Shown here piece after piece: positions 20,461 to 60,211 of a stretch of DNA of 64,000 bases. A program made the position numbers and the translations under genes. The notes under the pieces were generated by a model, which worked only from the letters and a program-made list of their open reading frames with translations, did not search any database and had not been told where the DNA came from. Position 1 is the first letter of the stretch. Every line of letters begins with the position of its first letter. The DNA is from Patescibacteria group bacterium (GTDB lineage Bacteria; Patescibacteriota; Gracilibacteria; UBA1369; PNNO01): contig JBHPIO010000004.1 of NCBI GenBank assembly GCA_042568575.1, forward strand, positions 26,522 to 90,521, in the 5' to 3' direction.

Positions 20461-20489
20461 TTGACAAAGGCGCTTGGTTGCCGTATAGT
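20461..20489 (+). promoter_or_regulatory. sigma70 promoter of unit A
   Basis: TTGACA-17 bp-TATAGT. Confidence 0.75.
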
Positions 20490-20642
20490 TGCACTTCCGC
20501 CCCTTGAAAATTTAACGACTGTTAGTTGATGAACACAAACGCCTCATTCAAGGCTTTTCAGATATGTCTGAGAGAGCTGCGAGGGGCATTTGTTCCTCGT
20601 CTGCTAATAAGACACCAAAACGTTTAATCAAAGGAGAACGAA

Positions 20643-20774
20643 ATGTGGATCCTTGAGGTTATTTTCTCGACAATAATTGTTGCCCTCACGGTGGCCGCCA
20701 TAATTGTGGCGATCTGCGTCATAAGAGCCGACATGCGGATCCAACGACAATTGGCTCGAGGAGGTGGGCGATAA
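20643..20774 (+). CDS. 43-aa single-TM peptide (not in the ORF track)
   Basis: AAGGAG SD 6 nt before ATG; MWILEVIFSTIIVALTVAAIIVAICVIRADMRIQRQLARGGGR. Confidence 0.7.
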   Translation: MWILEVIFSTIIVALTVAAIIVAICVIRADMRIQRQLARGGGR

Positions 20775-20927
20775 CCTGTACAACTGACTGAACTGGCAGC
20801 AACTAGCTGCAGAAAGTGTTGGTGAGTATAGCTAAAGACGAGGAAATTGGAGCGGATAGATAACTAAAAAGATCTATCCCTCCTTTTCCCATATCTAAAT
20901 CTCGTTTTAAAACGAAAAGGGGTAATT

Positions 20928-21363
20928 TGGTGGAGATGCCGGGAGTCGAACCCGGGTGCAAAAACTTAAAACGAAGACGTCTACAATCGTAGTTCATTTT
21001 TGATTACGCTTCTTTAGAATAAAAAATGAACAAAAGCTCTAAAGGAGCGGTCGGTTTAAGTCTTTTGCGTTACTAAAACCGTATAGCAACACAGCAGCCT
21101 GATGTATGGCGCCCTAATAAAATATCAGACATCAGATATTAGGACGTGGGCTTAAAAGCCCAAGGTTGAGCTATGCAACAGTTGCAGCTAATGTAGGCTT
21201 TCCTCCGAAGAGTGAAGCGTAAAGAGCTTTCATACCGTTTGCTACTCGTTCTTTAGATTCAGCATCTAAAATGCGCTGGACGGATATGCGGGGAGACAGC
21301 GCGATCCCCGGATTGCAATCAAACATTTTAAAAATAGTTTCTGTCGAATACCAATACATCCCC
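20928..21363 (-). ncRNA. ssrA: tmRNA
   Basis: 5' GGGGATG..TTCGAC and 3' GGTTCGACTCCCGGCATCTCCACCA form an Ala-type acceptor stem with G3.U; internal tag ORF ends LAATVA*; smpB is in the window. Confidence 0.95.
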
Positions 21364-21516
21364 CAATTTTTAAAGATCAATTGATAACGTTGTCGTCGTA
21401 TATTAATTATAGCTTATTTTAGCTGAGAGGGTAGTAAGATTGTTGTGGCGTGGCGCAAGTATGCGCACTTGCCTATCCAATTTCCACCCACACAGCAATT
21501 CGTAATCCTTGGTTCG

Positions 21517-21708
21517 CTACTTCTTCCTTCCTTTCGTTCTGCCTTTGCCCCTACGTTTCGGGGTCTTGGCCTTGATCTTGAAACTGCCGCTGTTACGCCG
21601 AGCAGCCCGTGCAGACTTCAATGCCTCCAAGTACTCGTTCGGGTGAAGAAGTTGCTCGTGGTTATCCACCATCTCCCCGTCATATTCACAGAATCTGCAT
21701 TTTGCCAT
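21517..21708 (-). CDS. Small basic protein with CxxC...H....H motif (unit B ORF2)
   Basis: AAGGAG SD; MAKCRFCEY...HEQLLHP and an Arg/Lys-rich tail. Confidence 0.65.
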   Translation of the reverse strand: MAKCRFCEYDGEMVDNHEQLLHPNEYLEALKSARAARRNSGSFKIKAKTPKRRGKGRTKGRKK

Positions 21709-21722
21709 ACTGACTCCTTGAC

Positions 21723-21920
21723 TTACTGCCTGCGTGCTCCGCGACCCCTGGTCTTGAGAGCAACGGGTTGGGGAGTTGTGGTTTCGACGGACGCTTCAGT
21801 CGTCGACTCTCGAAGAGAAGTGGCGCTGTCAAGCGCCCTGTAGTGAACTTCGCGCCCTTCTATCGTATCAAAACCTTTGTGGGGTACGTCGCATCGTTCA
21901 CATTGGTATTGGTTGCACAC
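21723..21920 (-). CDS. Small Cys/His protein with basic tail (unit B ORF1)
   Basis: AGGAGG SD before GTG; CNQYQCERCDVPH; RGRGARRQ tail. Confidence 0.6.
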   Translation of the reverse strand: MCNQYQCERCDVPHKGFDTIEGREVHYRALDSATSLRESTTEASVETTTPQPVALKTRGRGARRQ

Positions 21921-22055
21921 GTGTGTCCCTCCTGCTGTGCTTGTGTGGTTCTTAACTTACTACCCTGGTTGTCAAACGAGAGCACCTGAACTTTTAGGCT
22001 TTGGCCGCTGAAAACAGCGAGCAACGCCATACAAGGTGTTCTCAAAACTAAAGTT

Positions 22056-22083
22056 ATTATAACAAGGTTTCGCCAAATGTCAA
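22056..22083 (-). promoter_or_regulatory. sigma70 promoter of unit B
   Basis: TTGACA-16 bp-TATAAT. Confidence 0.75.
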
Positions 22084-22205
22084 CCCTCGAAGTAAAATAA
22101 CTTTTACTTGTAGAACGGCTGCTAAATCAGATTGTTTCACTTCGTCGAACGGGCTCTACCCGCTCAATCAGTCGCCAAGGCTCCTTCTTCGCAGCTAGAT
22201 CTAGC

Positions 22206-25445: not shown

Positions 25446-25484
25446 AACTTTATGTTTGATTAATCGGCGCTGCCGTAAATACTA

Positions 25485-26591: not shown

Positions 26592-27010
26592 AAGACGTTT
26601 AAATTAATATCCCTATGTCGAAAATATTATACTAAAAAGAATTTTTATCACAATAGATAGACTTAAAAAGTTTTTGACACTAAAGCTCAACTCTTCTCTA
26701 AACAATAGATTAATTATATACATAATTTAGTAGTTGACGCAGTTGCAAGTTTTCTAAAACTACGCAAAACAACAAAACTAATTATAATTAAGAAGATTAA
26801 CCCTTTGATAACAAAAGCTGTCATCCGCGAACACAAAAAGCAATCAATAGGGTTAAAATTAAAAACCGCACCAGAAAAAGACAAACCAACTAAAACGACC
26901 CTTTTGAACGATTGTTCAAAACTAACCAACAAACTATAAACAACTACCAATATATGAACGAAAAATGTATATTGGTTTGGCAATATTAACATCATATAAA
27001 CACCGACAAA

Positions 27011-27481: not shown

Positions 27482-27575
27482 ATCGTGGTACAATATACAA
27501 ACAGAACGCGACTGTTTATAAAATGTTTATAAATCACGTTTTGAACAATGTATGTTAATAACGCTACGAAACGGC

Positions 27576-28511: not shown

Positions 28512-28568
28512 TTGAAAACTGTTTGATTTTATGGTACTTTCATAACAAGTCTTATTAAACAAACAACC

Positions 28569-29174: not shown

Positions 29175-29200
29175 TCGCCCAAATCACTAAAAAGTATAAG

Positions 29201-29235
29201 TAAAAAGGCCTTCCTTTATAGGGAAGGTCTTTTTA
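29201..29235. terminator. Bidirectional intrinsic terminator
   Basis: TAAAAAGGCCTTCC/GGAAGGTCTTTTTA stem between the lipoprotein (+) and the 6S candidate (-). Confidence 0.8.
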
Positions 29236-29384
29236 GACTCCAAATTGCCGTTCCACAGTTTCATGCAGAAACCTGATCACTCAGGTGGGTGCCCGCATTT
29301 ATCAACCACGGTCGACAAAAATTAGGATACCCTTAGCATAAAGATGGGTTTACATGTAATTGCTTACACGAACAATTCAGAGAT
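29236..29384 (-). ncRNA. ssrS: 6S RNA candidate (compact, about 150 nt)
   Basis: 5' CTCTGAATTGTTCGT pairs with 3' ACGGCAATTTGGAG; carries GGGCACCCACCTG..CAGGTT as recalled for Firmicutes-type 6S; own promoter TTGAAA-17-TAACCT with extended TG; terminator follows. Confidence 0.7.
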
Positions 29385-29672
29385 GTAACAAGGTTATCAA
29401 AATTCGTTTTAAATTTCAAATTCCAATAATGCGAAAACACAAAATATTGTGTGCGGCATCACGAAAACCACAACCGGTTGCGACAAATTCACTCGACAAA
29501 ATAAGTGAAAAGATTTTTGGTTGCGTCGATCTGACAAAAAAGAAAGTAATTCAACATCGCTATCAAATTTGCTGCCTTTTTGCTGTATATTTTGATAGCG
29601 AATAAAAAGTCCCCCTCCAAACCTTCCTTCAAGGGGAGGCTTAAAGAAATGCTCACTTGCGCTCGTGTCTGC

Positions 29673-29762
29673 TGGCGGAGAGGAGGGGATTCGAACCCCT
29701 GGTACGATTTCTCGCACACTCGCGTTCCAGGCGAGCCCGTTCGACCACTCTGGCACCTCTCC
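29673..29762 (-). tRNA. tRNA-Ser(GGA)
   Basis: GGAGAGG/CCTCTCC acceptor stem, CTCGC-CTGGAAC-GCGAG anticodon arm, long variable arm, GGTTCGAATCC, encoded CCA. Confidence 0.96.
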
Positions 29763-29811
29763 CCGAAGTATTTGTATGGTATACTCATAGTCGCAAGTAA
29801 CACAACATATA

Positions 29812-30444: not shown

Positions 30445-30459
30445 AAAGAGTACCGGGCA

Positions 30460-33486: not shown

Positions 33487-33531
33487 TTTTATTTTAATTT
33501 GTCTAAATATTATATCATAAAACGACGGCTT

Positions 33532-35076: not shown

Positions 35077-35108
35077 ATTTTATTTTGTTTTTATTCTCTA
35101 TCTCTTAT

Positions 35109-46529: not shown

Positions 46530-46536
46530 GTTTATT

Positions 46537-49500
46537 TTACGGGTTGGTTGTGATTATAAGACGTGTGTCCAGATCGTAAGTAACCGGAAGTGTATAAGTA
46601 TTAACAGATGCATGAGTTTCTACATCGAAAGTTTTGCTTACAAGCGATGTAGCTGCTGTAAGAATTTGATCTTCACTTCCACTTAGCTCTAAATCGTGAA
46701 GATATTGATATTCCCCATCTGAAATTACTGCCCACGAATCAAATGGTTGAGTGCTACATTCGGTATCATTAGGAACCGTAAAGCTGGCATTAACATTGTT
46801 TAGGACAAATCCATATTCTTCATCTGAAGCTGGAGGGCTTGTTCCATCAGTGTCAATAGTACAGTCTGCAACAGGGTCAAATATGTATGTTCCATCTGTG
46901 AAAGCATTTTCATTTGGAGCCATTCCATACAAGACTTGAGATGCGGTCAGCGTACTATCAACAGTTATGGTACAAGCGTCGAATCCATATCTGTCTCCAT
47001 CTGTATCTTTTAAGTTATTACCTGCAGCTCTTCCTGCAGCGTTTGTATCGTTGATATCCATTAAGCTACTACATCCATCTGTAATAGACATGTAGTCAGT
47101 GATTTCGAAATTATAATGGTTACCCATATCTTTGTGAGACCATAGCCCAGAATTACCACTTGAATCTTCGAATCTAGCTCTTACATAATAAGGAGTTGCA
47201 GTTGTTAATGCCGAACCAGTACTGTCTTCGTTATAAACAATATCTCTTATGCGATCATCCGGCACAACAGTAGAGCCGTCTGATTGTTCGATTCCACCTG
47301 CGGTTGTGTAGTCCCAGATTGTCGAAGTAAAGTCCGAAGTATCATCGACCTGGATTTGAAGCTTATCAATTGCAGAAGCATCCTCTGGATTTACATAAAT
47401 TATACTAAAGTTTGGTGTTATATCTTGTGGGTCTACAGGTCCAGCTACATATGGCTCTGTTCCAGATCCAGCACCTGTATATGAATTGTTTATGAATAAA
47501 ATGTGCGGTTTGTCTGCAAAAGGAGCACAAGAAGTTAGTCCAGTAACAGTTGCACTCGATAATTCATAACATGAAGTTGGTTCAACTGTAGGAGTAGTTT
47601 CGTACTCAACTCGAGCATTTCCGGAAGCTTCTAATCTATCAGCTTCATAATCGTCACTTGTAAGAGTGTCGGGGATAAATGTTTGAGGAAGGATAGCCCC
47701 AGTTGGCACGTTTCCTCCTTGCTTAATTAATAGAGACCCTTCGGTATTATTATCGTCACCTAGGAACATGATAGTTCCGGCAGCAGCGTAATAACTGCTT
47801 GTCGTGTTGCTTCCTCCGAATGCCTGTATTCTCGATTCAGGGAATAAATATGAAGGAGCGGTAACTCCTCCGTCATCAGGATAATCCAAAAGAATCGAAT
47901 CAATCGAAATTCTTCCACCGCCACCAGGATATTCTCCCGCGGTCGTAGTAGTTCCTCCGTTCGCAGTGATGTATCCATCTCCTGTGAAGGTTACGCCTGT
48001 ATCTGTATGAGTAATATTGTGATCAATAATAATTGTTCCTCCGGCACCACACGCATAATCTAAGCTTCCACATGCTCCATCTGCTCTTATGTCTCCGTCG
48101 ATATCAATATTTCCATCAACTACCATTCTAACTCCACCACCACCGTAACTATCACATTTTGGATCTGCATTATTAGAAGCTTCTCCATATTTTGGATAAT
48201 CTGCGCTTGTAAGCTTCGTTTTGTCGTAAGTGTATCCTCCCGTTATTGCACCTCTGTTTGCACCTTCTCCACCGTGACTTCCGGCTCCAACATAAGTAGC
48301 ACAATGATACTGACTTTCTGCTTGTGTAGTATCGTTTCCGATCATACCACCTGTATTTACAGTTACACTGTCAGCATTAATTAAGAAGTATGATCCGTCA
48401 TTACCTGCAAGGGTATTTCCTTCTCCGGAGTGAATGCGTCCACCGCTGTATACTGTTAAATCGCCTGCATTTAAAGTTCCGTCTAATATGAGTTCTCCAT
48501 ATATATCAGTTGTGCTTCCAAGTACTGTTATAGTTCCTGTATCAACGGTCCAATTTCCATCAACAAGAACTGCATCGGCACCTACTGCGTTAGCGGAAAT
48601 CCTTAGTAGGGTATCACAGATAAAGTTTCCAACAATCTTTGCTTCGCCATCGAAAGTTGCTGTTCCCCATAGAGTCACTGTTCCCACACCATTACCTAAC
48701 AAGTCACTGCCGACTTCTAGATATGCTCCATTTTCATGATCGTAATTATCCGTACTTCTTAAGTGTGCCTGGGCGTCTGCGTTAACAATAATTGACCCAC
48801 CATTTTTATTAAGAATGTCTCCGTTATTTATCCACATGGTTGCTGTTAAATCTACATCTCCATATACGCTCATGTCTCCCATTACGTCTATATCTGAAGC
48901 GCCACTGTCGGCTGCGGTAAGTTTACCATCAGTTGTAACACCGGATAGAATTGTTAATCCATCCGTAGCTGAAGCACCTTCGACAGTTTGCGGACATGCA
49001 AGGCTCTCCGTATTTGTTTGGAATACGCCTCCATCAAGTACATAAACCTGTCCGTTATCACCAATCACCGTACAATAATCTACGAAGACTTGTCCGACTC
49101 CAGACCCAGCTAGTACCATTCCACCATCACCTATAAGAAGTGGCTGAAAAATATCTGCGGTACCATTTGCGGTGATGTATCCGTCTACTCTTACTCGAGA
49201 AGTTGAAGCGTCTTCCCCTAATCTTGCATATCCAGAGGCGTCAACTTCTATTCCTCCCCATTCTCCAAGAACAACATCGCCTGTTGCATCTTCGGTTCTA
49301 AATAGTCCGTCTGCGTTTACATCAATTTTTGCGGAACGCGCTATGCTCGGATCGTCAGTTCCTATTTCAAGAGAACAAGTATAAGATCCGCATGTTCGGC
49401 TTGAGGTTACACGCACATCTGCATTTGCATTTACATCAATAAAAGTATATTGCCCAATAAGCCCACTTAGAGGGGGCTGCATCTCAATAGTACCCAGGGT

Positions 49501-52500
49501 GTTGTAATACCCAACAGAACTGTCTGGATTGTAGAAGTAAATCGAACTCTTGTCGTCCATATAGACATCTCCTGCATTTATAATTCGTCCATTGACGATA
49601 ATGCTTGATGAACTCGTAGTAGAGATGTCTCCGCCTTCAAGATCCAATAATGAATAAACTCCAGCGGTTGTAGTGTCGTAAATAGTTATAACTCCCGAGT
49701 AAGTACCTATAAGGGTGTTATTTGTTGTTGAGGTTTCAAAATCAATACTACTGTATATATGTACGTTTGTCCCTGGATCGTCAGACCATATATGCCCTGG
49801 ACTTCCAACTCTACCAATAGAATGAGTTGGCGTAGATCCTGCGTAACTGTCGCTTCCAAAGGTTGTTGTTCCCGTGTCGTTTGTTTCTACCGATATTCCG
49901 TCAACATGATACATGAAGCTTGCCGTTCCTCTATTATCAAAATTGTCAAAGAAGAATTGCGAGTCGTATGGACTTCCGGCATTATCTCCGCGCACAACAC
50001 CACCGTTATAACTAAACATATTACCAGTTGTATAAGTTCCGTTCACTATTCCCGCTTCGTTTTCTAATAGTCCTCCATTTTCTGTAAAAATTGTTCCGCT
50101 AACATCAAGAGTAGATCCGGCACTATCTAGGTTTACATCTCCAGAATTCCACAAATTGGCATTAATGTCTGTAGCTCCTGATTGTGATAATATTCCACCC
50201 ATTTGCATTATCCCACCGGCTTGAACTTCAACATCCATTTCAATATCTGCTAATGGTTGAGGAGCTATAGCCGCATTCACATTTAATAGCCCCTCATACT
50301 CAATGTACATTCTTCCTGCAGTTTCATTTACGTCGAGGAGACCATCTGTAAGTATGTTAATTGTAGCGACCCCGGAACTTATACCCGTATAGCTAAGAAC
50401 TATATTTGCATTGTTTGCAGTATCGGCTACATCAATTTCACCATATATATTTATGTTTGAATCAAAGGTTATAGAATGTCCCGTATTTACTTCGATTGAA
50501 CAGTAATCTACGCCAACGTCATCACAGTATGGAGATTGGGTGGTTGCTAACGCAGAATGAGCACCGGTTAAGTTTAAAGTTACACTGCTATGAATATACA
50601 AATCTGGTGAAGCTGTGTATCCCTGCATTTCCAAACTTAAAAATCGTGTACCGTTTGATCCCGAGTTAAGATCAACATCTCCACCACTATAAATGCTTAA
50701 AGTCCCATAGGTTGTATGTACTCCATCATCTCTATTGACCGGGTATGTAGCCAGGAGGTGGGCATTGTCACCCGAAGCAATAAAGTCTCCAGCTACCCAC
50801 AAATCTCCGCGAACATCCATTAGTCCTTCAGAACCTATATTTGCGTATCCATCGACGTCTACGTCACTAAGAGTGTTGTAAATATATAGTTTACCGTTAT
50901 CGTCTCCGGTTGTTCCACTTACGCCTAAATTTCCTCCAATGTCAAAGAATGCGTATTGACGAGCCAAGAGTTGACCGCCGCTTACCTGTACATTTCCTGT
51001 AACGGTTGTTGTTGCCAGGGATGAAGAATACGAGTCAAATTTTGCATATTGTTCAAGAATTAAGTTTCCGAAACTAACAGTGTTTCCACCTGCATCTGTT
51101 CTGTAATTATTAAACCAAGAGGTGTTTGTTGTCCAGTCTGCTGAGCCTCTAAATGTTGCAGTTCCCGCAACATCGAAGTCGTTTACGGTGTCACTTGCAT
51201 ATGTGTATATAGCTAATCCGGCATCGTATGCTTCAAAAGCATCGGTTCCGGTATCAATCACATCAACATCTGCTTCAGTAGACATAATAAAACTTCCTCC
51301 GTCGTTGTAGTCTACCGCACTGTTATAGTAGCCGACGTGCAGTTTGTCTGTTTCGAAATTACTTTCATCGTAAGTTGCAGTAACAGGATCACTATTAACG
51401 GCCACAAGAGCAGAGTCATAGACATTAACGGTCCCGTCTACTCTGAAAGTTGTAGTTGTTGCGGATCCGGATTCGTCCGAAGTATAAATTCTACTACTGT
51501 CATTCATCGTTATATAGGCATCTGAGCTAACAAGGTCATCAACCGTGAACAATCCGCTCATGTTGTCGATCCTTGAAGTTCCGCTCATGACTATGCTGTC
51601 ATATACATAGAAATTTCCAGCGCTATCATTATGAATACGCGAAGAACCATCTGTTACGAGATCGTGGCGTACTGTAAATTGACTAGTGTTATTTACCGTG
51701 TTTGCAAAGGATCCGTCAGTTGTATTCAGCCGAAGATCGTCGTACATGACACATGTTCCGCTGTTATCAATATGCCCATAATTTCCAACGTACGCATATC
51801 CGTCTACGGTACATAAAGTACTATCATTATTTAAGAAGGCGTCATCACTTGAAGTTACACCACCTGTGATATTCATTCGTCCGTCTACGTCCAGTCTTGC
51901 TCCGCTATCGTTATTAAATGTTCCTTCAATAAATATTTGGAATGGGTAAAAGCTTGTTCCGCTGTAATCAACATTCACAGTTGCAGCGTTATTATTTTCA
52001 AAGACCGAATTAAAACTAGAGCCCGAATTTGCGAACCCTACTTGTAGTGAGGCCGTATTTACAGTTCCGGAATTATTAAAGACAGGAGTATTTGAAGTAG
52101 TCGCACTATTTGAATGAAGTAATATTACCCCGTCAGTTGATGACGTGGAAGTATTGTGTACGTTTACTATTCCTGTGGATTGATTAGTAAAGGTCGTATT
52201 GAAATAAACGAAGAGGAAGTTACTGGTGCTTCCGTTGACCGTTATGGTTGCATAATTATCAACCGAAGCAGTATCCCCACTTGAGTCTCCTAAATATAAA
52301 TCGTCATACACTTGGAAATCGCCACCGACATAGTTAGTCAAAACTGCGGTATCAAATATATTCACAGTGCCATTTGCATCAAATAGATCAGCATTTCTTA
52401 ATGTTGAAGAACCGCTGGCGGTAACAAGTCCTGTAACAGTTGTACTATTGTAGTTTATAAAATCTGAATAATTTTGCATCAGAAACTGGCCTGCTACTTG

Positions 52501-55500
52501 AATGACTCCGGCAGAGCCGTTGTAGAGCTCGGGTCTAACAGAGCTACTGCTTCCATATCGACTATGGAAGTAGCCGTCTATATCCAAGGTTCCATAATTA
52601 TCTAAATCACAATCGTCATTTAAGTTGACGTAACCAGAAGCATAATCCTGATTAAGTTCGGCTCCGGCTGCGATGTTTACATTACCTCCATTATAAACAC
52701 GTAAATAATTTGTCAAACTGTTAAGTCCTGCGGTATCGATGTTTAGATATCCCAAATTGTATACATCGATAATGTTGTAAACATTCATGTATCCATCGTT
52801 TTCGAAATTTCCACCTTCGTCTACACTGTCTCCCATGTATAAATTATTTGTGTAAAAGGCTGAGCCGGAATTATTATCCCAGTCTCCTTCGCTCACATTT
52901 GCGTTGTAATAAAGATAAGTAGTTCCTGCTACATAAATGTAATCACTGTTTTCCACATGCCCACCTGTTGGTGCGCCATCCGTATCACCTATGTACCAGT
53001 TCCCGGAAATAGTTAAACTTCCGCTAGTGGCACTTACTGTAGTGTTTCCACCATCAAATAAATATGCGCTTCCAACAACATCCAGGTCTCCCTGAACCAA
53101 AACGTATCCTCCCAGAGGAGATCCGTCTGCATCTCCCTGATACAAAGTAGTTACGTCAAGAAGCCCTCCTGCATCAACATCCAGCGTGGCCCCGTTATCA
53201 ACATACATTGTGTTGTTAACATCCACACTTCCTGTATCACGCACGTTAAGACTTCCACCACTTCTGATATCTACGATACCGGAGAAAGTACTTTGTCCTC
53301 TTCCATCAAAATATGGAGTTCCTGTTGAATATACGTTCATTGCTGCGCCGTAGATTCTGGCGTAGCCGGAGGCATAATACCAAGTTCGTACACTTCCGTA
53401 GGCATAGAGTGTTCCATATATGTTTACGGTCCCACCATCAGAGCCGGATCCTACTTGGAATACTCCGGTATTATATACATAAGTTGATGAATCATGCCTT
53501 GATGATGCATCTTGATAAGTGTAATGATACGCACCATCCCATATAATGTATGTACTTTGTGTTCTCATATACGAGGTGCCTCTATTATAAACTCTCCCTC
53601 CGTTGTAAACATTCACCCCGCTTGTAAATGTGACGCTTGCTGAACTCTGAAGAGTCAAAGTTCCATAAATATCACCACTGCTATATGTGTAAGTTCCTCC
53701 TGTAATTGTACAAGTGTTTCCTGCCGAAATGTTAAGTGCGCCACTTCCTCCGTCACAATCTCCGGAAAGCGCTCCATAAAGAGGGTCTTCTTCTCCCTCA
53801 GGGTAAGCTTCTTCAAGTAATTTTGACCATTCTTCAGGGTCTATTGGGAGCCCATTAAAGTTTGCAACCCCGGGTCCGATTCCATGGTTTTCAAATGCCT
53901 GGATTATTTCAATTATGTGAGGAGTTCCATCTGTAAAATCTTCATTGTCGTCATCTTCAATAATCATTCCATACATGAATGTTTCGAAATGTAATCTGTC
54001 TTGGTAAAGCGTGTTGAGTACAAGACGGTCAGTTTCCGCTGCTCCAATTTCTTCACGTAAATCCCAAAGTGCACCTGAGAAAATGCGACCATCAGAGTGC
54101 GCGTTCCCGGTCATGTCAGTTTGGTAATTTAGTGTATTATCAAGATTTCTGGTTCTGTTTGGAGCTACAACATCTCCCCAAACCGAATCATTGTTTATTG
54201 AGGCTGCGAAGTAGTCCGCAAGCCCTTCACTAATTGCCGCAGATTCCGCCCCCGTAATATTTGGAAGGTGAGTAATATCTTCTACGATAAAGTGGGCATA
54301 TTCATGATATACAATGTCGCTTGAAAGCGCGTAATTTAATTCGTCCGGACAAAGAGACGTTGTTCCACGTCCTATCTCAATTGTTTTTTCTGTGTTGTTA
54401 AACCATGCTCCACATCCGTGAAGGTATTGATCAACAAGTTCTGAGTTAACAGTAATCGGGATGTTGTCGTTCATTTCGAATTGATGAACATCCGCAAAAT
54501 ATTTTCTGATTTTATTCGCGTGATAGAAAGCGTTGATAGCTTCTAGGCTTGCACTGTTTTCATCCCACGTGAAAGGATCTTCAGGGGTTTTATCTTTAAT
54601 TTCAACATTTGAAGTTGCGTCATCATCGTGGACAGTTACGTAAGGGCCGTCCAGGAATAGGCTGTACCATTTTCTATTTGGATTTTCAAAATATCCTTGA
54701 TCGTCTGTGAGAACTTGTGTTGTATCTATATAAACATATTCATCCGGGATTGGTTCTATAATCGGAGTATCGTTTGGTGTTTTTGGGAAAATCTTACCAA
54801 GCACTTGGCTGAAGAAAGTATTTATAACAACGATCTCAGGTTCTTCTGTAGCTGACAGGTCTGCTGTTGCAGCAAAGTCGGCAAGCAGTTCCGTTACAAC
54901 TTCTGGAGAAGCTGGGCTGCTTTCTTCTGGTGCTATTGGTGCTGGGACAGGTGCTGGAGCAGGGGCAGGAACTTCTTCAACCGCAAGGGCGGTAGGTTCT
55001 GCAACGGCTTCTTCTAGCAATACTTCTTCCAGCGTAATTTCATCTTCTAGTGAAACTTCTTCCGGAATTGGCACATTTGGTGATGGCTCTGGAGGAGTCT
55101 CCCCCAAATTAAATTCTGGAAGAGGCGCGTCTGTATCAGGCAAGATTAACGGTGTTGCACCAGGATTATATGGCTGAGGAATACCTTCTTCGTTGTATTC
55201 AATAACGTAGTCTTCTGGATAATCTTCCAGCGGATTTGTTGGCAAAGTATCCTGCAAGCGAATGTCTCCGTATAAATTTACGATTCCGCCATCCATTCCA
55301 CTTACAAGAACTTCCCAATCTCCGAGAGGATTGTGAACGTTTGTGTCGATTCTGTATGTTGGTTTTTTCTTGTAGTAACCCTTGTCAATAAATTCAATTT
55401 TGTCGATATCATCATTCCACTCAAACGCTTCTTTTGCTTTTGTTTGAGCTGTTGCTTCGGACAGCGTAAATTCTATGTTATCAGGGATGTCGTACTTTAG

Positions 55501-56313
55501 ATTGTCGCTAAGAACTAGTAGCTTCTTTTTTTCAGTGAAGACCAGCTTCATTGTTCCATCGAATACTGGAAGTCCATTTTCGTATTGCTGGAAAGTAACG
55601 TACCATTTATTTGCATGGTGTTTGATTTCCGATAAAACTATTTGGATTTTTTTCTTCGATTGTTTTAGCTTGCTTGTGTCTTTGTAGACCGCGATTTTAT
55701 CTTTATTTGGAATGGCCTGTATGTATTTATTTACCATGTTTCGAGAGACACTGTTTGCATCTTCTTCTTTCTTGACTTCTCTTGGGCCAAAATCAACGCC
55801 TACGTTTTCCATTACTAAAATTTCTTCTTCAAATCCTTCGACTTCTCTCTTGATCGATTTAATTTCAATGTCTTGTCTGTTGAATGATTTTTCAAGCTGA
55901 TTTTTTTTGCCCAACTCTATTTCTTCCTCGACTGCATCTGTTACTTCTTCGGGTCCCTCCGTCAGTTCTGCGAGGTCTGCTTTTACGTTTTCATCATGTA
56001 GTTCGATGTTTAAATCTACGTCGCCGCTTTCAAATTCTTCTCTGATTTTGTCTTCTTTTGTTTTCTTGGTTGGGAACTCGATTGGCTTTTTGCTAATCTT
56101 AACTTCTGGCGTTGCTGGAGTTGTTGTTTGAATAACCTGCGCGCCAAACCGTTCTGAAACTAGTTGCGCACTTGGTTCCGCGCATACACTAAAATAAACA
56201 AGAGGCCCAATAATAAGAGCAGCTATGAGACCACCACCGAAGATTTTTTGTATTTTAGCTAGGAGAGCTTTGTGCCTTTCTCGAGCCTTAAGCCAGCCAT
56301 TAAGGTTCCCCAT
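46537..56313 (-). CDS. Giant secreted protein with FTP/PepSY-like propeptide, M4/M36-like Zn metalloprotease, beta-helix-like repeats and C-terminal pilin-like module
   Basis: FQQYENGLPVF; HEYAH (54292-54306), SEGLADYF, H..G.IFSGALWDLR; ends TYDLDTRLIITTNP. Confidence 0.72.
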   Translation of the reverse strand: MGNLNGWLKARERHKALLAKIQKIFGGGLIAALIIGPLVYFSVCAEPSAQLVSERFGAQVIQTTTPATPEVKISKKPIEFPTKKTKEDKIREEFESGDVDLNIELHDENVKADLAELTEGPEEVTDAVEEEIELGKKNQLEKSFNRQDIEIKSIKREVEGFEEEILVMENVGVDFGPREVKKEEDANSVSRNMVNKYIQAIPNKDKIAVYKDTSKLKQSKKKIQIVLSEIKHHANKWYVTFQQYENGLPVFDGTMKLVFTEKKKLLVLSDNLKYDIPDNIEFTLSEATAQTKAKEAFEWNDDIDKIEFIDKGYYKKKPTYRIDTNVHNPLGDWEVLVSGMDGGIVNLYGDIRLQDTLPTNPLEDYPEDYVIEYNEEGIPQPYNPGATPLILPDTDAPLPEFNLGETPPEPSPNVPIPEEVSLEDEITLEEVLLEEAVAEPTALAVEEVPAPAPAPVPAPIAPEESSPASPEVVTELLADFAATADLSATEEPEIVVINTFFSQVLGKIFPKTPNDTPIIEPIPDEYVYIDTTQVLTDDQGYFENPNRKWYSLFLDGPYVTVHDDDATSNVEIKDKTPEDPFTWDENSASLEAINAFYHANKIRKYFADVHQFEMNDNIPITVNSELVDQYLHGCGAWFNNTEKTIEIGRGTTSLCPDELNYALSSDIVYHEYAHFIVEDITHLPNITGAESAAISEGLADYFAASINNDSVWGDVVAPNRTRNLDNTLNYQTDMTGNAHSDGRIFSGALWDLREEIGAAETDRLVLNTLYQDRLHFETFMYGMIIEDDDNEDFTDGTPHIIEIIQAFENHGIGPGVANFNGLPIDPEEWSKLLEEAYPEGEEDPLYGALSGDCDGGSGALNISAGNTCTITGGTYTYSSGDIYGTLTLQSSASVTFTSGVNVYNGGRVYNRGTSYMRTQSTYIIWDGAYHYTYQDASSRHDSSTYVYNTGVFQVGSGSDGGTVNIYGTLYAYGSVRTWYYASGYARIYGAAMNVYSTGTPYFDGRGQSTFSGIVDIRSGGSLNVRDTGSVDVNNTMYVDNGATLDVDAGGLLDVTTLYQGDADGSPLGGYVLVQGDLDVVGSAYLFDGGNTTVSATSGSLTISGNWYIGDTDGAPTGGHVENSDYIYVAGTTYLYYNANVSEGDWDNNSGSAFYTNNLYMGDSVDEGGNFENDGYMNVYNIIDVYNLGYLNIDTAGLNSLTNYLRVYNGGNVNIAAGAELNQDYASGYVNLNDDCDLDNYGTLDIDGYFHSRYGSSSSVRPELYNGSAGVIQVAGQFLMQNYSDFINYNSTTVTGLVTASGSSTLRNADLFDANGTVNIFDTAVLTNYVGGDFQVYDDLYLGDSSGDTASVDNYATITVNGSTSNFLFVYFNTTFTNQSTGIVNVHNTSTSSTDGVILLHSNSATTSNTPVFNNSGTVNTASLQVGFANSGSSFNSVFENNNAATVNVDYSGTSFYPFQIFIEGTFNNDSGARLDVDGRMNITGGVTSSDDAFLNNDSTLCTVDGYAYVGNYGHIDNSGTCVMYDDLRLNTTDGSFANTVNNTSQFTVRHDLVTDGSSRIHNDSAGNFYVYDSIVMSGTSRIDNMSGLFTVDDLVSSDAYITMNDSSRIYTSDESGSATTTTFRVDGTVNVYDSALVAVNSDPVTATYDESNFETDKLHVGYYNSAVDYNDGGSFIMSTEADVDVIDTGTDAFEAYDAGLAIYTYASDTVNDFDVAGTATFRGSADWTTNTSWFNNYRTDAGGNTVSFGNLILEQYAKFDSYSSSLATTTVTGNVQVSGGQLLARQYAFFDIGGNLGVSGTTGDDNGKLYIYNTLSDVDVDGYANIGSEGLMDVRGDLWVAGDFIASGDNAHLLATYPVNRDDGVHTTYGTLSIYSGGDVDLNSGSNGTRFLSLEMQGYTASPDLYIHSSVTLNLTGAHSALATTQSPYCDDVGVDYCSIEVNTGHSITFDSNINIYGEIDVADTANNANIVLSYTGISSGVATINILTDGLLDVNETAGRMYIEYEGLLNVNAAIAPQPLADIEMDVEVQAGGIMQMGGILSQSGATDINANLWNSGDVNLDSAGSTLDVSGTIFTENGGLLENEAGIVNGTYTTGNMFSYNGGVVRGDNAGSPYDSQFFFDNFDNRGTASFMYHVDGISVETNDTGTTTFGSDSYAGSTPTHSIGRVGSPGHIWSDDPGTNVHIYSSIDFETSTTNNTLIGTYSGVITIYDTTTAGVYSLLDLEGGDISTTSSSSIIVNGRIINAGDVYMDDKSSIYFYNPDSSVGYYNTLGTIEMQPPLSGLIGQYTFIDVNANADVRVTSSRTCGSYTCSLEIGTDDPSIARSAKIDVNADGLFRTEDATGDVVLGEWGGIEVDASGYARLGEDASTSRVRVDGYITANGTADIFQPLLIGDGGMVLAGSGVGQVFVDYCTVIGDNGQVYVLDGGVFQTNTESLACPQTVEGASATDGLTILSGVTTDGKLTAADSGASDIDVMGDMSVYGDVDLTATMWINNGDILNKNGGSIIVNADAQAHLRSTDNYDHENGAYLEVGSDLLGNGVGTVTLWGTATFDGEAKIVGNFICDTLLRISANAVGADAVLVDGNWTVDTGTITVLGSTTDIYGELILDGTLNAGDLTVYSGGRIHSGEGNTLAGNDGSYFLINADSVTVNTGGMIGNDTTQAESQYHCATYVGAGSHGGEGANRGAITGGYTYDKTKLTSADYPKYGEASNNADPKCDSYGGGGVRMVVDGNIDIDGDIRADGACGSLDYACGAGGTIIIDHNITHTDTGVTFTGDGYITANGGTTTTAGEYPGGGGRISIDSILLDYPDDGGVTAPSYLFPESRIQAFGGSNTTSSYYAAAGTIMFLGDDNNTEGSLLIKQGGNVPTGAILPQTFIPDTLTSDDYEADRLEASGNARVEYETTPTVEPTSCYELSSATVTGLTSCAPFADKPHILFINNSYTGAGSGTEPYVAGPVDPQDITPNFSIIYVNPEDASAIDKLQIQVDDTSDFTSTIWDYTTAGGIEQSDGSTVVPDDRIRDIVYNEDSTGSALTTATPYYVRARFEDSSGNSGLWSHKDMGNHYNFEITDYMSITDGCSSLMDINDTNAAGRAAGNNLKDTDGDRYGFDACTITVDSTLTASQVLYGMAPNENAFTDGTYIFDPVADCTIDTDGTSPPASDEEYGFVLNNVNASFTVPNDTECSTQPFDSWAVISDGEYQYLHDLELSGSEDQILTAATSLVSKTFDVETHASVNTYTLPVTYDLDTRLIITTNP

Positions 56314-56355
56314 TGATTTTTTTATTTTAAATTTTTGGTCTTTTTATACGTAAAT

Positions 56356-56384
56356 ATTATACCAGTTTTTTCTTCTAGGGTCAA
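56356..56384 (-). promoter_or_regulatory. sigma70 promoter of the giant-protein operon
   Basis: TTGACC-17 bp-TATAAT. Confidence 0.7.
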
Positions 56385-56396
56385 AGGAAATCGGGC

Positions 56397-56440
56397 AAAA
56401 AAATTACCCGATCAAGTCGTGAGACGGCTTGTCGGGTAAT
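56397..56440 (-). terminator. Intrinsic terminator of unit D
   Basis: ATTACCCGA/TCGGGTAAT stem followed by a T run on the minus strand. Confidence 0.75.
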
Positions 56441-56578
56441 CGGGGGATTTTTGGCTTGCTACTGCGTGTTTCCTGTTTTTGGGCAGGTGCGCGTATACAG
56501 AGCCGAAGGTTGGAGGCTTTCAAGAGCAGCCCTTGAAGGGGTTGCCTTAAAGCCTTTTGGCGTGATTTCTAAGCGCTT

Positions 56579-59122
56579 CTAGCGGCGCCGTCGGCGAATG
56601 CCGAGGCCCACTAGGGTGATTAAAAGCACGATGGGGATTGTGCCGGGCATTGAATTACCCGACGTGGAGCAGCCTTCGGAGGAGGTTTTGAGCTTCCATT
56701 CGAATTCGACGAGGCCATGGAGAGGAATGGGCTGCCTGGAACCGTCGCCCGAGATGGTCATGCACTTCTCTTCGTTGTCCTCTTCTCCGGTGAGGCAGAA
56801 ATCTGCCAAGCCTTTGAGGCCGGCTACGATGAGCCAGTCTCCTTGTTGGCCTTTCCACTCGCTGAGAATCTCGGTAGCGCGAATGAAGTTCTCCTGTTCG
56901 ATTTCGGTTACCTGCCTGTTGCCGTGGAAAATTTGCATGCCACGGTTGTTGACCAGGCTGGCTCCCTGCTCGATGACGAACTCTCCTGCCTGCGTGATTC
57001 GCATGCGCGGGAGGGTTCCTTCTTCGGTCGGGAAGAGGTGAATCCAGGCGCCGCCGTCCCTTGTCTTCTGGAGCGTACTTGCGCCGTAGTTGCAGTACGA
57101 GCCTTCCGGTACGGTGACGACGAGGTCGCCTTCGACGATCTGCGCATTGCTGCAATCTTCAGTGAGGGTTTCAGTGTTGAGGGCATAGAGATCTGCGGCT
57201 TGCGGGTCGTTTAGGTCATCGGCGGTCGGATCCGCGTTGGGATCCAGGCTGGCGCCTTCTGGGGCGTAGCCGGGATCACAATATGTCTCGTCAAACCGGC
57301 AGCTTGAAGTGCATAGCAACGTCCCACCTCCCAGGTTCCCCCTGCTTTCGCAGGTTGCACCGTTGAGGTCTTCCGGAATGCTTCCTCCGTCTCCGGGGTC
57401 GCACTCTTCGCCGACGTCGATTTGTCCGTTGCCACAGTCCGCGGTTTCGGTGTAGCAGTTCTCGTCGCAACCGTCGCCGTTGATTCGATTGCCGTCGTCA
57501 CAGTCCTCTCCGGCGTCCACGTTGTTGTCGCCGCATTGCGGCTCGACCGTGGTACAGCTCTGGGTGTTGATAATGCAGTTCTGGTAGCACGAAAGCGTGC
57601 CCGATCCGAGTCCGAGACTCGTACAAGTCGAGCCGCCCATGTCGCTGCCGTCACACTCTTCGTGCGGAAGGTCCGCTACGCCGTCGCCGCAGGTTGCGCA
57701 CTCGTCCTCGATAAACGCATCGCAGGTCGTGTTACACGCAAGCTGGCCGCCGTTGTAGCTCCCGATGGTTTGGCAGATCTCGCCGTTGAGATTTTGGGGA
57801 ATTGAGCTCCCGTCTCCTGGGTCACAGGTCTCGCCGGGATCGATCTGGCCGTTGCCACAGTTGGTGCAGCTCGTGGTGACGAAGCCGTCGCAGGAGGCGT
57901 TACACGCGAGTGTTCCGCCGGCGAAGCCCTCGTCCTGACACGTGCGACCTTTGACGTCGTTGCCGTCGCAGAGCTCTGTTGGGGCGGCGATGCCGTTCCC
58001 GCAGAAGTAGCTGCAGTTGGACGTGTCCACGTTGCATGAACCGTCGCAGGTGAGAGTTCCGAGATCGAAGTCGTACGTCGTGCAGTCCGCGTGATCCAGG
58101 TTCGTTCCGTCACACGTTTCACCGTCCTGCGTTTCCACGATGGTGTTTCCGCAGAATCCTTGTTGGGTCGGGGCCATGTAGCTTACGCCCTCGATGGTCC
58201 CAAAGTTGGCGGCGGTGTACGAGAACAGGTAGTCTCCTGTTTCCGGATCGTAGCCTACGACTTCCGGGTCAGCTCCGCTGTCATCGACAACACAAAGCTG
58301 GTTCTCGGAAAGCGCATTCTCGAGCGGGGCACCTACGTTGATGGTTTGGATGACGGATTGTGCCGCCGTGTCCACCACGTAGAGGTCGGTTCCGGTCGAA
58401 GACAAGGCCACGTAGCTCTCCGAATTGGACATGAAGTCCGTGCTACTGGGGAGAGCCAGGAAGAGCGTTGGTGCAAAGAGCCAGGGTGCCTGCGTTTGAT
58501 ACAGGCTGTTGCCGTCGTTTATCAACAGCATCCCCAGCGTCTCGCTCCAAACCAAACTCTTGGGAGTGGAAAGACTGGCGGGATGTTGTATCGCACCTCC
58601 GGAAGACATGAAGACCGCGAAATTCCACATGTCGTCGAATCCCGCGATAATCGAGTCAGATGTTTCCACTATCATAGAGTATGCAATACCTCCGCTGATA
58701 CCGGAAACCGGATTTGTACAATCTCTTTCGAAGCCGATGAGATACCCGCTTCCCGGACAGATGACGTAAACGATCTCGTCATACGGGGGGAACACGTCGG
58801 TGAAGATGCCGGGTCGGCACACTTCTCCGACGTTGAGGGAGCACTGCGCTCCGCCGTTCGCGAAATCGGTGACGTACACGTTGTTGTCGCCGACACGTGT
58901 TGCGATCGCCATGCTGTTCGAGCACTTGGCCCAGCCGGGGCCGGTACCCATGTTGTCGAGGAACCCCTTCTCGTACCCGTTTCGAACGACGTAAACGCCG
59001 CTCTGATTGGGCATACAGAAGCAGTTCTCCTGGGTTAGGCAGTCCTGCGGGTTTTCGCCCTTGGCCTGCGTCGACACTGACATGATCAGCGCCACCACTG
59101 CAATCGTTGCGAAATTTCTCAC
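56579..59122 (-). CDS. GC-rich secreted protein with Myxococcus-type Cys-rich repeats and a MYXO-CTERM-like sorting signal (unit D)
   Basis: AAGGAG SD and GTG; signal peptide; tandem CG(N/D)G..E.CDG..L.G.TC...G...GTL.C...C repeats; C-terminal SEGCSTSG...IVLLITLVGLGIRRRR. Confidence 0.8.
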   Translation of the reverse strand: MRNFATIAVVALIMSVSTQAKGENPQDCLTQENCFCMPNQSGVYVVRNGYEKGFLDNMGTGPGWAKCSNSMAIATRVGDNNVYVTDFANGGAQCSLNVGEVCRPGIFTDVFPPYDEIVYVICPGSGYLIGFERDCTNPVSGISGGIAYSMIVETSDSIIAGFDDMWNFAVFMSSGGAIQHPASLSTPKSLVWSETLGMLLINDGNSLYQTQAPWLFAPTLFLALPSSTDFMSNSESYVALSSTGTDLYVVDTAAQSVIQTINVGAPLENALSENQLCVVDDSGADPEVVGYDPETGDYLFSYTAANFGTIEGVSYMAPTQQGFCGNTIVETQDGETCDGTNLDHADCTTYDFDLGTLTCDGSCNVDTSNCSYFCGNGIAAPTELCDGNDVKGRTCQDEGFAGGTLACNASCDGFVTTSCTNCGNGQIDPGETCDPGDGSSIPQNLNGEICQTIGSYNGGQLACNTTCDAFIEDECATCGDGVADLPHEECDGSDMGGSTCTSLGLGSGTLSCYQNCIINTQSCTTVEPQCGDNNVDAGEDCDDGNRINGDGCDENCYTETADCGNGQIDVGEECDPGDGGSIPEDLNGATCESRGNLGGGTLLCTSSCRFDETYCDPGYAPEGASLDPNADPTADDLNDPQAADLYALNTETLTEDCSNAQIVEGDLVVTVPEGSYCNYGASTLQKTRDGGAWIHLFPTEEGTLPRMRITQAGEFVIEQGASLVNNRGMQIFHGNRQVTEIEQENFIRATEILSEWKGQQGDWLIVAGLKGLADFCLTGEEDNEEKCMTISGDGSRQPIPLHGLVEFEWKLKTSSEGCSTSGNSMPGTIPIVLLITLVGLGIRRRRR

Positions 59123-59331
59123 GGTCTTGCTCCTTCCGTTTTCCTCCGTCTCGCCATCGAGACATTAAAATTTGCGTTTCCTCTGTTTCGGATATCTTGA
59201 ATCGGGGTTTTCCTCCGTTAAAACCGAATGAATGTTTGCTCCACTTTATCAATGAGCTATCATTTACTCATTTTTTTGCTTGAAATTCTTATATTGCAAA
59301 CAAAAAATAAGCAAATCGTCTGGGGCTTCTT

Positions 59332-59359
59332 ATTATGCATCATTTTCCCAGTTTTGCAA
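59332..59359 (-). promoter_or_regulatory. sigma70 promoter of unit D
   Basis: TTGCAA-16 bp-CATAAT. Confidence 0.55.
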
Positions 59360-59385
59360 CCACATCTGAGGAAAAAACTAGAATC

Positions 59386-59421
59386 AAAAAGAGAACCCGG
59401 CAAGGAGGCGTTTGCCGGGTT
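59386..59421 (-). terminator. Intrinsic terminator of unit C
   Basis: AACCCGGCAA/TTGCCGGGTT followed by CTCTTTTT. Confidence 0.75.
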
Positions 59422-59730
59422 TTGTAACTATTTGTCAGACATATAGCCTGAACGTACAAGGAAGGTCAATGGTCACCACGCTCCCTGAGCGGGAGAAAGA
59501 ACACTGGCGCCAGAAGGACCATAGCATTCATCTGTGAATGGTGCGCCGGCGAATTGCCTTTAGATAGCGCGTTCACAGACAAGAGATTGAAGAGCTGAAA
59601 GGTTGAGCTGTTGAGTTGTGCTCCTGTCCCGTTGCGGGACTTTCCGCCTAAAGATCTACAGGAGTAGATTGAGCAAAGACGGATAATTGAGCTTTGGATC
59701 TATTCAGTTTTTCTGTCTTGCAGAGGTAGC

Positions 59731-60009
59731 TTACGGCTCATCTGCGAAGTAATATGTCATGCCGCTGGTACGGTCTTTCCAGAGATGACCTTTTCCTCGG
59801 CACGTGTCACAGGTGTGAGATTTCCAGCCAGGTTGCACGCAGCCTGGGGGGCTGCAATTTTGCTGAGCCGCGGAGACTCTGCTAACATGGTGGCGTATAA
59901 CGCCCCGTCCGCGACAACCATGGCAAGATACCTTGCGGTACTTTTTTCGAAATCTTTTTTTAGCTGCTTTTTCACGTTTCGCTATCAGCTTCAGATCGTA
60001 TGCAGACAT
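59731..60009 (-). CDS. Small basic DnaJ-type zinc-finger protein (unit C)
   Basis: GGAGG SD before ATG 60009; CHGCRGRG and CDTCRGKG (CxxCxGxG) motifs. Confidence 0.7.
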   Translation of the reverse strand: MSAYDLKLIAKREKAAKKRFRKKYRKVSCHGCRGRGVIRHHVSRVSAAQQNCSPPGCVQPGWKSHTCDTCRGKGHLWKDRTSGMTYYFADEP

Positions 60010-60182
60010 GTGTTGCCTCCAAAAAATAGAACATGTCATTCAACCGTGATTCCCGAAAATTCCTCCTTTTGACTTCGGGAAGTTAAAGCCCTACGTGTAA
60101 ATGAGCGACCATTCGCTCATTTTGTTGTCTACCAATCCGACTATCCGCAAACAATAAAACAAGCAAATGGTATTGGAAGCGC

Positions 60183-60211
60183 ATTATGCTCCAAATATCT
60201 TGTTTTGTAAA
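60183..60211 (-). promoter_or_regulatory. sigma70 promoter of unit C
   Basis: TTTACA-17 bp-CATAAT. Confidence 0.55.

Follow-up and report, generated by a model that had tools for sequence, protein, structure and literature searches.

In the 64,000-nucleotide (nt) stretch of DNA analyzed here (the window; contig C26:26522–90521 of assembly G000), 4 gene units, which we designate A, B, C, and D, share near-consensus promoters, strong Shine–Dalgarno (SD) sequences, and raised guanine-plus-cytosine (GC) content. We hold with moderate confidence that the 4 units are unrelated accessory genes within a minority of genes that use an SD, and that they are read by the cell's own ribosomes. On balance, their resemblance probably stems from membership in this SD-initiating minority and not from one shared design. 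The first-pass annotation of this DNA had proposed a single design, in which the 5′ and 3′ untranslated regions (UTRs) of each unit pair to enclose its open reading frame (ORF) in a closed mRNA, possibly built for the ribosomes of a host. The signals are real and non-random; the shared closed-mRNA architecture is not general. As a description, "stabilised, SD-dependent mRNAs" translated by the ribosomes of the cell itself remains fair, and 3 elements are worth keeping: (i) an array linked to the transfer-messenger RNA (tmRNA) gene, with a cassette identical across genera; (ii) a conserved panhandle in B; and (iii) the persistent GC richness and SD dependence of genes for Cys-rich surface proteins, such as D.

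The 4 promoter-like sites are as follows (coordinates here and below are positions in the window).

22083–22056, minus strand: unit B promoter-like site, TTGACA-16-TATAAT, 12/12 with TG (extended −10), conserved in the sister species G001
20461–20489, plus strand: unit A promoter-like site, TTGACA-17-TATAGT, 11/12
60211–60183, minus strand: unit C promoter-like site, 10/12
59359–59332, minus strand: unit D promoter-like site, TTGCAA-16-CATAAT, 9/12

The 2 regions contain 5 and 6 such sites, compared with 2.6 and 2.0 in shuffles. An AGGAG or GGAGG motif lies 6–8 nt before the start in each of the 5 ORFs, namely A, B1, B2, C (from ATG 60009), and D (from GTG 59122). The GC content is raised unevenly, with values of 0.44–0.48 in A, 0.53–0.54 in the B ORFs, at most 0.525 in the C ORF, and 0.56–0.625 in D, compared with 0.36–0.42 in most of the window; the leaders of C and D are AT-rich like the host genome (GC 0.37–0.44). 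The sigma70-type promoters, strong SDs, and GC-richer ORFs described by the first-pass annotation are thus found at their places, and so is the setting that it gave: A and B flank the tmRNA gene, and C adjoins smpB.

The scarcity of SDs elsewhere, likewise claimed earlier, was borne out by a genome-wide scan. GGAG at a spacing of 5–9 nt was found at 15 of 923 crude ORF starts in G000 compared with ~8.6 expected, each ORF (minimum 120 aa) being read from its first ATG and the expectation being taken from positions further upstream. This count agrees with the 7% SD listed for Ca. Peribacter riflensis in Table 4 of PMC10783764. By eye, smpB, nadE, and the 3258-aa gene adjoining D have no SD. The 3′ end of the G000 16S rRNA gene is GGATCACCTCCTTTCT, in which the canonical CCTCC anti-SD is present, and the ribosomal protein bS21 (PF01165) was not detected in a profile search of the G000 assembly, which is 82% complete. 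Therefore, no host ribosome is needed to explain the SD-led units. Peregrinibacteria are often without bS21, according to passages of PMC9297842. Bacteroidia, in which the anti-SD is hidden by bS21 (PMC7797042 and PMC9976891), provide a close comparison: they are SD-poor, retain the anti-SD, and have rare SD-led genes such as Flavobacterium johnsoniae rpsU (PMC9976891, PMC7797042, and PMC13000453). G000 similarly is almost SD-free, keeps CCUCC in its 16S rRNA, and has a handful of strong-SD genes. It differs from Bacteroidia in that bS21 is undetected, and in that strong SDs precede surface-protein genes and accessory genes instead of rpsU.

Assembly G000 comprises 1.20 Mb in 31 contigs with 36–41% GC (~38%). 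The nearest named relatives of its SmpB protein are metagenome-assembled genomes (MAGs) labeled Patescibacteria group (90% identity), Candidatus Peribacteria (69%), and Candidatus Peregrinibacteria (53–58%), which places the source organism, as judged from this protein, in the Peribacteria/Peregrinibacteria group of the uncultured candidate phyla radiation (CPR) bacteria. The relatives compared were the sister species G001; G002, G010, and G006 from other genera; and G005 and G008, further genomes of the family. The family sample consisted of 13 genomes including G000 (12 others), the order sample of 205 genomes, and the class sample of 400.

Predicted folding separates the units from one another. 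The whole-unit folding z-scores relative to shuffles are −4.06 for A (0/100), −4.24 for B (0/20), and −5.93 for C (0/20). The complete transcript of D (2.96 kb) is beyond the folding limit, and the ends of D were folded separately; the UTR z-scores are −4.44 for the C 5′ UTR, −4.07 (0/100) for the C 3′ UTR, −2.22 for the D 5′ UTR, and −4.53 (0/200) for the D 3′ UTR. The controls gave +0.13 (smpB), +1.75 (nadE), and −0.97 (D interior). Pairing of the 5′ and 3′ ends around the ORF is present in the minimum free energy (MFE) structure of B and is kept in G001; in A it is predicted only in a 5′-truncated RNA, and the proposed 5′ arms of C and D lie in local hairpins. The units are heterogeneous, with enclosure for B only, and the single closed-mRNA design is not supported. 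At the gathering score, Rfam models matched only tmRNA, 6S RNA, and tRNA, and relaxed scans of both regions (E-values up to 1) gave nothing credible.

Unit A belongs to a cassette array adjoining the tmRNA gene on its 3′ side.

20928–21363, minus strand: tmRNA gene (ssrA), 113.7 bits
20339–20934, plus strand: cassette A, a 596-nt block between successive TTGGTGGA cores (tmRNA 3′ end)
20339–20425, plus strand: conserved ~80-nt module (tmRNA-3′-end core plus element arm) that opens each cassette
20643–20774, plus strand: unit A ORF, 43 aa, with AGGAG at 20632–20636
20593–20602 and 20836–20845, plus strand: arms of the unit A 10-bp inverted repeat, which flanks the ORF
19594–20338, minus strand: next cassette of the array, with an orphan 232-aa ORF (19636–20334) of no Pfam family and a partial module near 19610

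Cassette A is 100% identical to a stretch of contig C2 of G010, which belongs to another genus and whose tmRNA is only 69% identical. Both ends of the block of identity between G000 and G010 fall exactly at the TTGGTGGA core, and the flanks beyond are unrelated. The core consists of the last bases of the tmRNA gene, with copies at 20339 and 20927, and the exact direct repeat bounding the cassette is just 8–9 nt. Of the module, 4 full copies were counted in 3 genera; it opens cassette A in G000 and occurs 2–3 times in G010 and 2 times in G002 (a third genus), at 87–100% identity, in addition to partial copies such as that near 19610 in G000. The copies always lie on the 3′ side of the tmRNA gene, spaced 0.6–1.1 kb apart, and each interval between modules contains one orphan ORF without a Pfam family. 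The module resembles the tmRNA 3′ region in a degenerate form and is more conserved between genera than the tmRNA gene itself. It is present in 3/13 family genomes, and the cargo of cassette A is present in 2/205 order genomes; in metagenomes, the module was found on a single contig, a close relative of the G002 locus. The sister species G001 has neither the module nor the A cargo, and a putative dxr-type gene (by eye) follows its tmRNA gene. The array shows the traits of islands in tRNA and tmRNA genes (tDNA): location at the 3′ end, a displaced direct repeat of the 3′ end, and variable presence among relatives. Such tmRNA-linked arrays are the signature of tandem integration at tDNA. As these sequence comparisons show it, A is a mobile mini-cassette recently exchanged between genera. 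The first-pass alternative of a cassette class moved via paired ends holds as far as A is a mobile cassette, but its boundaries are direct repeats matching the tmRNA 3′ end and not paired ends. An assembly chimera as the source of A in G010 was rejected; both junctions diverge right at the 8–11-nt core, and a k-mer join would need a longer stretch.

Integration at the tmRNA gene is reportedly the subject of "Traffic at the tmRNA gene" by Williams. The array shares with tmRNA islands (i) location at the tmRNA 3′ end, (ii) bounding by a repeat of the 3′ terminus, (iii) tandem arrangement, (iv) variable presence, and (v) orphan cargo. Unlike those islands, the present cassettes are 0.6–1.1 kb long, single-gene, and integrase-less, have an exact repeat of 8–9 nt, and open with the ~80-nt module. 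The Islander database (PMC4383910) covers genomic islands in tRNA and tmRNA genes, including tandem arrays at ssrA. Integron cassettes also form single-gene arrays with a recurring site of ~80 nt and a recombinase outside the cassette; by contrast, the present module is without an attC-like hairpin, cassette A at least has its own promoter, and the array is anchored at the tmRNA gene. Folded as DNA, 3 module copies (one of them on each strand) formed no attC-like hairpin (z of 0.02, −0.05, 1.50, and −1.17). No IntI/attI platform was seen in G000, the 4 tyrosine recombinases of which were not sorted by class. At the attachment (att) site no integrase was found; matches to PF00589 lie only on contigs C2, C6, and C12 and none on C26. 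Two tyrosine-recombinase genes lie ~1.2 kb apart on opposite strands at C2:13193–15370 of G000 and are candidates for acting on tmRNA-linked cassettes. The tag assigned by ARAGORN to ssrA (20928–21363) is unusually long, with 30 residues (27 in G010), and its resume codon may be misplaced.

In cassette A, a promoter and a 147-nt leader precede the ORF of the 43-aa single-helix peptide, and a terminator completes the cargo. The peptide, by eye, has ~25 consecutive hydrophobic residues (one predicted helix) followed by a basic tail. It matched no Pfam or NCBIfam family, and its best Atlas score was at most 0.84, with none of at least 0.9. The 10-bp helix of A is absent from both the MFE and the centroid structure of the full transcript, in which a local leader hairpin is preferred, and the panhandle appears in both structures only once the first ~90 nt of the leader are removed. 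No antisense promoter within A was found by scan (a weak candidate only, by eye), and a terminator-like hairpin lies within A on the minus strand (20554–20541). Variant A copies for covariation do not exist among the genomes compared. The mRNAs of hok-type type I toxins fold back with paired 5′ and 3′ ends and have a long structured leader and a small ORF. The present units are like them in the long structured leader, the small ORF (encoding a hydrophobic peptide in A), and the long-range helix between leader and 3′ UTR; they are unlike them in that no antisense RNA was found for A and that B encodes basic zinc-finger proteins. Unit A would thus resemble a type I toxin, without support from an antisense RNA or a family match.

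Unit B, on the other side of the tmRNA gene, has the following features.

21428–21966, minus strand: panhandle, formed by an 11-bp helix (21956–21966 with 21428–21438) and an 8-bp helix (~21933–21940 with 21490–21497)
21723–21920, minus strand: B1 ORF, 65 aa, GTG start, with GGAGG at 21928–21932
21517–21708, minus strand: B2 ORF, 63 aa, C2H2-like zinc finger plus Lys/Arg tail, with AGGAG at 21714–21718

The 11-bp inverted repeat is exact and appears in the MFE structure together with the 8-bp helix, which pairs the bases just 5′ of the SD with the bases just 3′ of the stop codon. The promoter, leader, SD, and 3′ UTR of B are found again beside the tmRNA gene of G001, together with a B2 orthologue (67% identity). 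Both helices are unchanged there at an overall DNA identity of ~79%, and both appear in the MFE and centroid structures of the G001 sequence (z of −5.05, 0/100). The differences between B2 and its G001 orthologue are largely synonymous, plus an in-frame indel; therefore, B2 is protein-coding. B1 is a diverged paralogue of B2 (30% identity) that is absent from G001. A two-protein B2 profile gave 5 weak hits among 1.84 billion representatives (best E-value 1.8e-9), 4 of which are C2H2 zinc-finger proteins. A word search of 5.8 billion clusters found no B2 relatives, nor did a search of the JGI metagenome contigs, and B2 was not found in the other 203 order genomes (present in 2/205). These results show that B is an operon for small zinc-finger proteins, specific to the genus, and that 2 conserved helices close its mRNA. 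The B leader occurs at 2 contig ends in G001; a repeated element was rejected as the reason, because the 2 ends, which overlap by 132 nt, seem to belong to contigs that adjoin each other in the assembly.

Unit D lies near smpB, at the other end of the region studied.

56579–59122, minus strand: unit D ORF, 847 aa, with a signal peptide, Cys-rich acidic repeats, and a GC...RRRRR C-terminal tail
59123–59365, minus strand: unit D promoter and leader, with a 5′ hairpin (~59262–59316), a palindrome (59251–59272), and AAGGAG 7 nt before the GTG
56397–56578, minus strand: unit D 3′ UTR, 3 hairpins including a terminator, z of −4.53
60294–60752, plus strand: smpB, no SD, conserved neighbor of D in G006 and G008

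The D protein matches TIGR02232 with 31 bits (cut-off 20.8) and TIGR03382 with 22 bits (cut-off 15.85), and scores 15.3 bits against TIGR03901, under the cut-off of 20. The match to TIGR03382 brings with it the MYXO-CTERM trait of a C-terminal Gly-Cys, a transmembrane helix, and an Arg cluster; a whole-genome search with this short model gave no match anywhere, controls included, and so carries no information. The signal peptide, the repeats, and the GC...RRR tail, which score above the cut-offs, are like those of the MYXO-CTERM Cys-rich repeat proteins (TIGR02232 and TIGR03382). Unlike them, D has ~58% GC in a genome of 38% GC, and its N-terminal domain belongs to no family. Because of the signal peptide and the C-terminal sorting tail, D is a protein made and exported by the bacterium. 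The GC content at third codon positions (GC3) is near 75%, as counted by hand in the first 41 codons only. In the PeerJ description of Ca. P. riflensis (passages of PMC4736985), a genome GC of 58.5% is given, along with numerous large Cys-rich proteins that are exported and weakly resemble the Myxococcus repeats.

Relatives of D are present in 12/12 other family genomes. Outside the family, weak matches confined to the repeats were found in 5/28 genomes of the order sample. In the class sample, an E-value of 1e-25 was reached only by family members (2 of 5 sampled) and by one repeat-only hit from outside the family. In the complete genome G006, of another genus, the D orthologue lies between smpB and the orthologue of the giant protein, as in G000, and has 51–62% GC compared with 33–40% in its flanks; the same smpB-D junction is found in G008. 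The SD is kept in 6/6 D-family genes from 3 genera (D, two G000 paralogues, and the G006, G008, and G005 genes), and the orthologue leaders in G006 and G008 retain both the SD and the palindrome. These comparisons show that D is a vertically inherited, family-specific gene for a Cys-rich surface protein, in which the SD, the promoter type, and the leader palindrome are conserved. Since D is family-wide and syntenic with its SD kept, it is a lineage trait and not a recent import. As to the proposed end pairing, the 5′ arm of D (59296–59317) sits inside the long AU-rich local 5′ hairpin, and the other proposed helix consists, by eye, of 5 + 4 AU-rich pairs with a bulge.

Two further exported proteins are encoded in the window. 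A 3258-aa secreted protein (46537–56313, minus strand) with a thermolysin-like HEYAH motif (by eye) lies directly downstream of D, and its N-terminus and its position beside D are conserved in G006 and G008. A 514-aa exported protein (33532–35076, minus strand), with GC only mildly raised (0.457 per kb), has 2 Cys-rich acidic repeats matched by D.

Unit C lies between smpB and D.

60090–60217, minus strand: unit C promoter and leader, with a 27-bp 5′ hairpin (60108–60171) and a palindrome (60100–60121)
59731–60009, minus strand: unit C ORF, 92 aa from ATG 60009 (GGAGG at 60016–20), or 102 aa from 60039
59386–59730, minus strand: unit C 3′ UTR, structured, z of −4.07, terminator at 59421–59394

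The first-pass statement that the units lack primary-sequence similarity proved wrong for C and D. Over ~130 nt of promoter and leader, the 2 units have 79 identical positions in 132 columns, and their front ends share the −35 element, a GCATAAT −10 element, the arm of the 5′ hairpin, and the palindrome AATGAGY-N8-RCTCATT. Among the 13 family genomes, this palindrome is found only in the C and D leaders of G000 and in the orthologue leaders of G006 and G008; its inner stem pair varies among the copies (A-T, G-C, or G-T). Unit C is absent between smpB and D in G006 and G008, and its DNA has no match in the 12 other family genomes. This comparison shows that C has been inserted between smpB and D and bears a diverged copy of the D promoter and leader. 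The C product contains two CXXCXGXG motifs and matches Pfam DnaJ_CXXCXGXG with an E-value of 2.5e-4, below the cut-off; it has no protein relatives by word search or viral contig scan, and its Atlas scores are at most 0.88. The proposed 5′ arm of C (60139–60154) is the inner part of the 27-bp local hairpin (transcript nt 6–69).

Under the reading of the 4 units as members of an SD-using minority, most genes of the lineage would initiate on open, AT-rich leaders without an SD, and GC-rich genes with structured leaders would keep a strong SD, a near-consensus promoter, a 5′-end hairpin, and an intrinsic terminator. The SD would be needed because the leaders and ORFs are structured, and its pairing would be kept by selection. 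The 5′ hairpins of C, D, and B, together with the terminators, may protect the mRNAs; the panhandle of B may couple both mRNA ends and gate the SD or translation. Unit A would move by site-specific recombination at the TTGGTGGA core, catalyzed by a recombinase encoded elsewhere.

Several points weigh against this reading. The GC enrichment of A is modest (0.44–0.48), and of 8 other GC-rich ORFs in G000 only 4 have, by eye, an SD-like motif 4–11 nt upstream; therefore, GC richness and the SD are not tightly linked. The folding in excess of shuffles that the earlier annotation anticipated was recovered for A, B, and C, but the interior of a GC-rich enzyme gene also has a z of −3.61, and a low z is therefore not specific to the 4 units. 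The absence of bS21 is not proven, because the genome is 82% complete, and the figure for SD scarcity depends on crude ORF calls, the count being rough because the first ATG was taken as the start. The conservation of the B helices involves just 2 sequences with no compensatory change. The 4 tyrosine recombinases of G000 are all on other contigs, none beside ssrA. Finally, the reading gives no explanation for the persistence of ~58% GC in D under vertical descent in AT-rich genomes.

Other explanations account for parts of these data. The units might all be recent imports from GC-rich, SD-using donors, so that SDs, GC content, and UTR structure are carried over from the donor without a role here. 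Such an origin would fit the 100% identity of A between genera, the presence of B2 in just 2/205 order genomes, and the lack of a relative of C anywhere searched. It would also fit the strongly mosaic composition of G000, in which 76 stretches have at least 0.50 GC (300-nt windows) against the 36–41% background, including beta-oxidation-like genes with 57–60% GC. We regard it as rather unlikely, given that D is family-wide, syntenic, and SD-led in other genera, that the promoters and leaders of C and D are locus-specific and AT-rich like the host genome, and that in the sister species B, like the tmRNA gene next to it, is retained at ~79% DNA identity. Moreover, the searches yielded no relative from phages, viruses, or metagenomes: in a blastn comparison with 50,697 phage records, B and C had no match, which also speaks against the prophage debris considered at first pass, and scans of viral contigs with C and B2 gave none either. 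That B and C and the UTRs are non-coding structured RNAs whose ORFs arose by chance is very improbable. The z-scores from −4 to −6 and the lack of protein homologues of B2 and C by word search would agree with it; the mostly synonymous changes and in-frame indel between B2 and its G001 orthologue, the match of the B2 profile to C2H2 zinc fingers, the two CXXCXGXG motifs of C, and the absence of an Rfam match even at E-values up to 1 do not.

The resemblance of A, and perhaps B, to fold-back mRNAs of toxins, also raised at first pass, is partly sustained. In this explanation, which we consider unlikely as a whole, the fold-back would lock the full-length mRNA, processing would free translation, and the product would harm or protect the cell and stabilize the cassette. 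The 43-aa peptide with one hydrophobic helix is encoded on a mobile cassette behind a 147-nt structured leader (z of −4.06), and 2 mutually exclusive conformers are predicted for A, a leader hairpin at full length and the 10-bp panhandle after 5′ truncation; the conserved B panhandle adjoins the SD. Both A and B look like fold-back mRNAs, but no known toxin family was matched, the B products are basic zinc-finger proteins and not membrane peptides, the scan found no antisense promoter in A (a weak candidate by eye), and there are no variant copies for covariation. We give almost no credence to the export of closed mRNAs to a host cell, whose SD-dependent ribosomes would translate them, as the first-pass idea of RNA effectors implied. 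Only the contrast of SD-led units with SD-less core genes and the episymbiotic lifestyle proposed for Peribacteria in passages of PMC4736985 would be in keeping with export, and nothing in the data calls for translation in another cell. Against it stand the anti-SD (CCTCC) of the cell's own 16S rRNA with bS21 not detected, the bacterial signal peptide and sorting tail of D, and the conservation of the SD along with the gene in relatives (6/6 D-family genes). The ordinary sigma-70-type promoters and intrinsic terminators also argue against export, as does the restriction of the enclosure by end pairing to 1/4 units.

A broader combination, in which 2 systems exist jointly, is possible although we doubt it. 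It would consist of an integron-like system of single-gene, promoter-bearing mini-cassettes anchored at the tmRNA gene and moving between genera, with a recombinase in trans and a site made of the 8-nt core and the ~80-nt arm, and of an SD-led, GC3-rich tier of genes whose GC content is actively maintained and not a donor legacy. This translational tier may include the fast-evolving Cys-rich surface proteins of the family, in a CPR lineage in which SDs are scarce and bS21 is lacking. CPR bacteria are uncultured, and the control of gene expression and gene exchange in them is almost unknown. If the SD-minority reading is true, one small genome has 2 initiation modes, with SD-less core genes and strong-SD surface and accessory genes. 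The tmRNA-linked mini-cassette array, with one cassette identical in 2 genera, would be a small, tractable mobile-DNA system in CPR bacteria, and the Cys-rich surface-protein genes with ~58% GC inside genomes of 35–40% GC bear on surface variation in episymbionts. Showing that the idea of a host-directed RNA effector is unnecessary is itself useful.

The other GC-rich stretches of G000 include genes for an OPT-type transporter and a Pro-rich 605-aa protein. Two islands with 57–60% GC (C4:19003–21668 and C31:24186–27895) encode, as read from their translations, beta-oxidation-type enzymes, putatively an enoyl-CoA hydratase-like protein, a Zn-dependent dehydrogenase-like protein, a 3-hydroxyacyl-CoA dehydrogenase/hydratase fusion, and a thiolase; such a set, putative as it is, is unusual for a CPR genome. 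At positions 1056–1081 of the island on C31 lies a perfect SD (AGGAGGTG); a 3-codon mini-ORF comes after it, ~50 nt before an SMP-30-like ORF without its own SD, and this mini-ORF may represent a leader peptide or translational coupling. Within the window, a 6S RNA gene (29233–29386, minus strand; 51.7 bits, gathering score 46.4) lies near tRNA-Ser(GGA) (29673–29762, minus strand).

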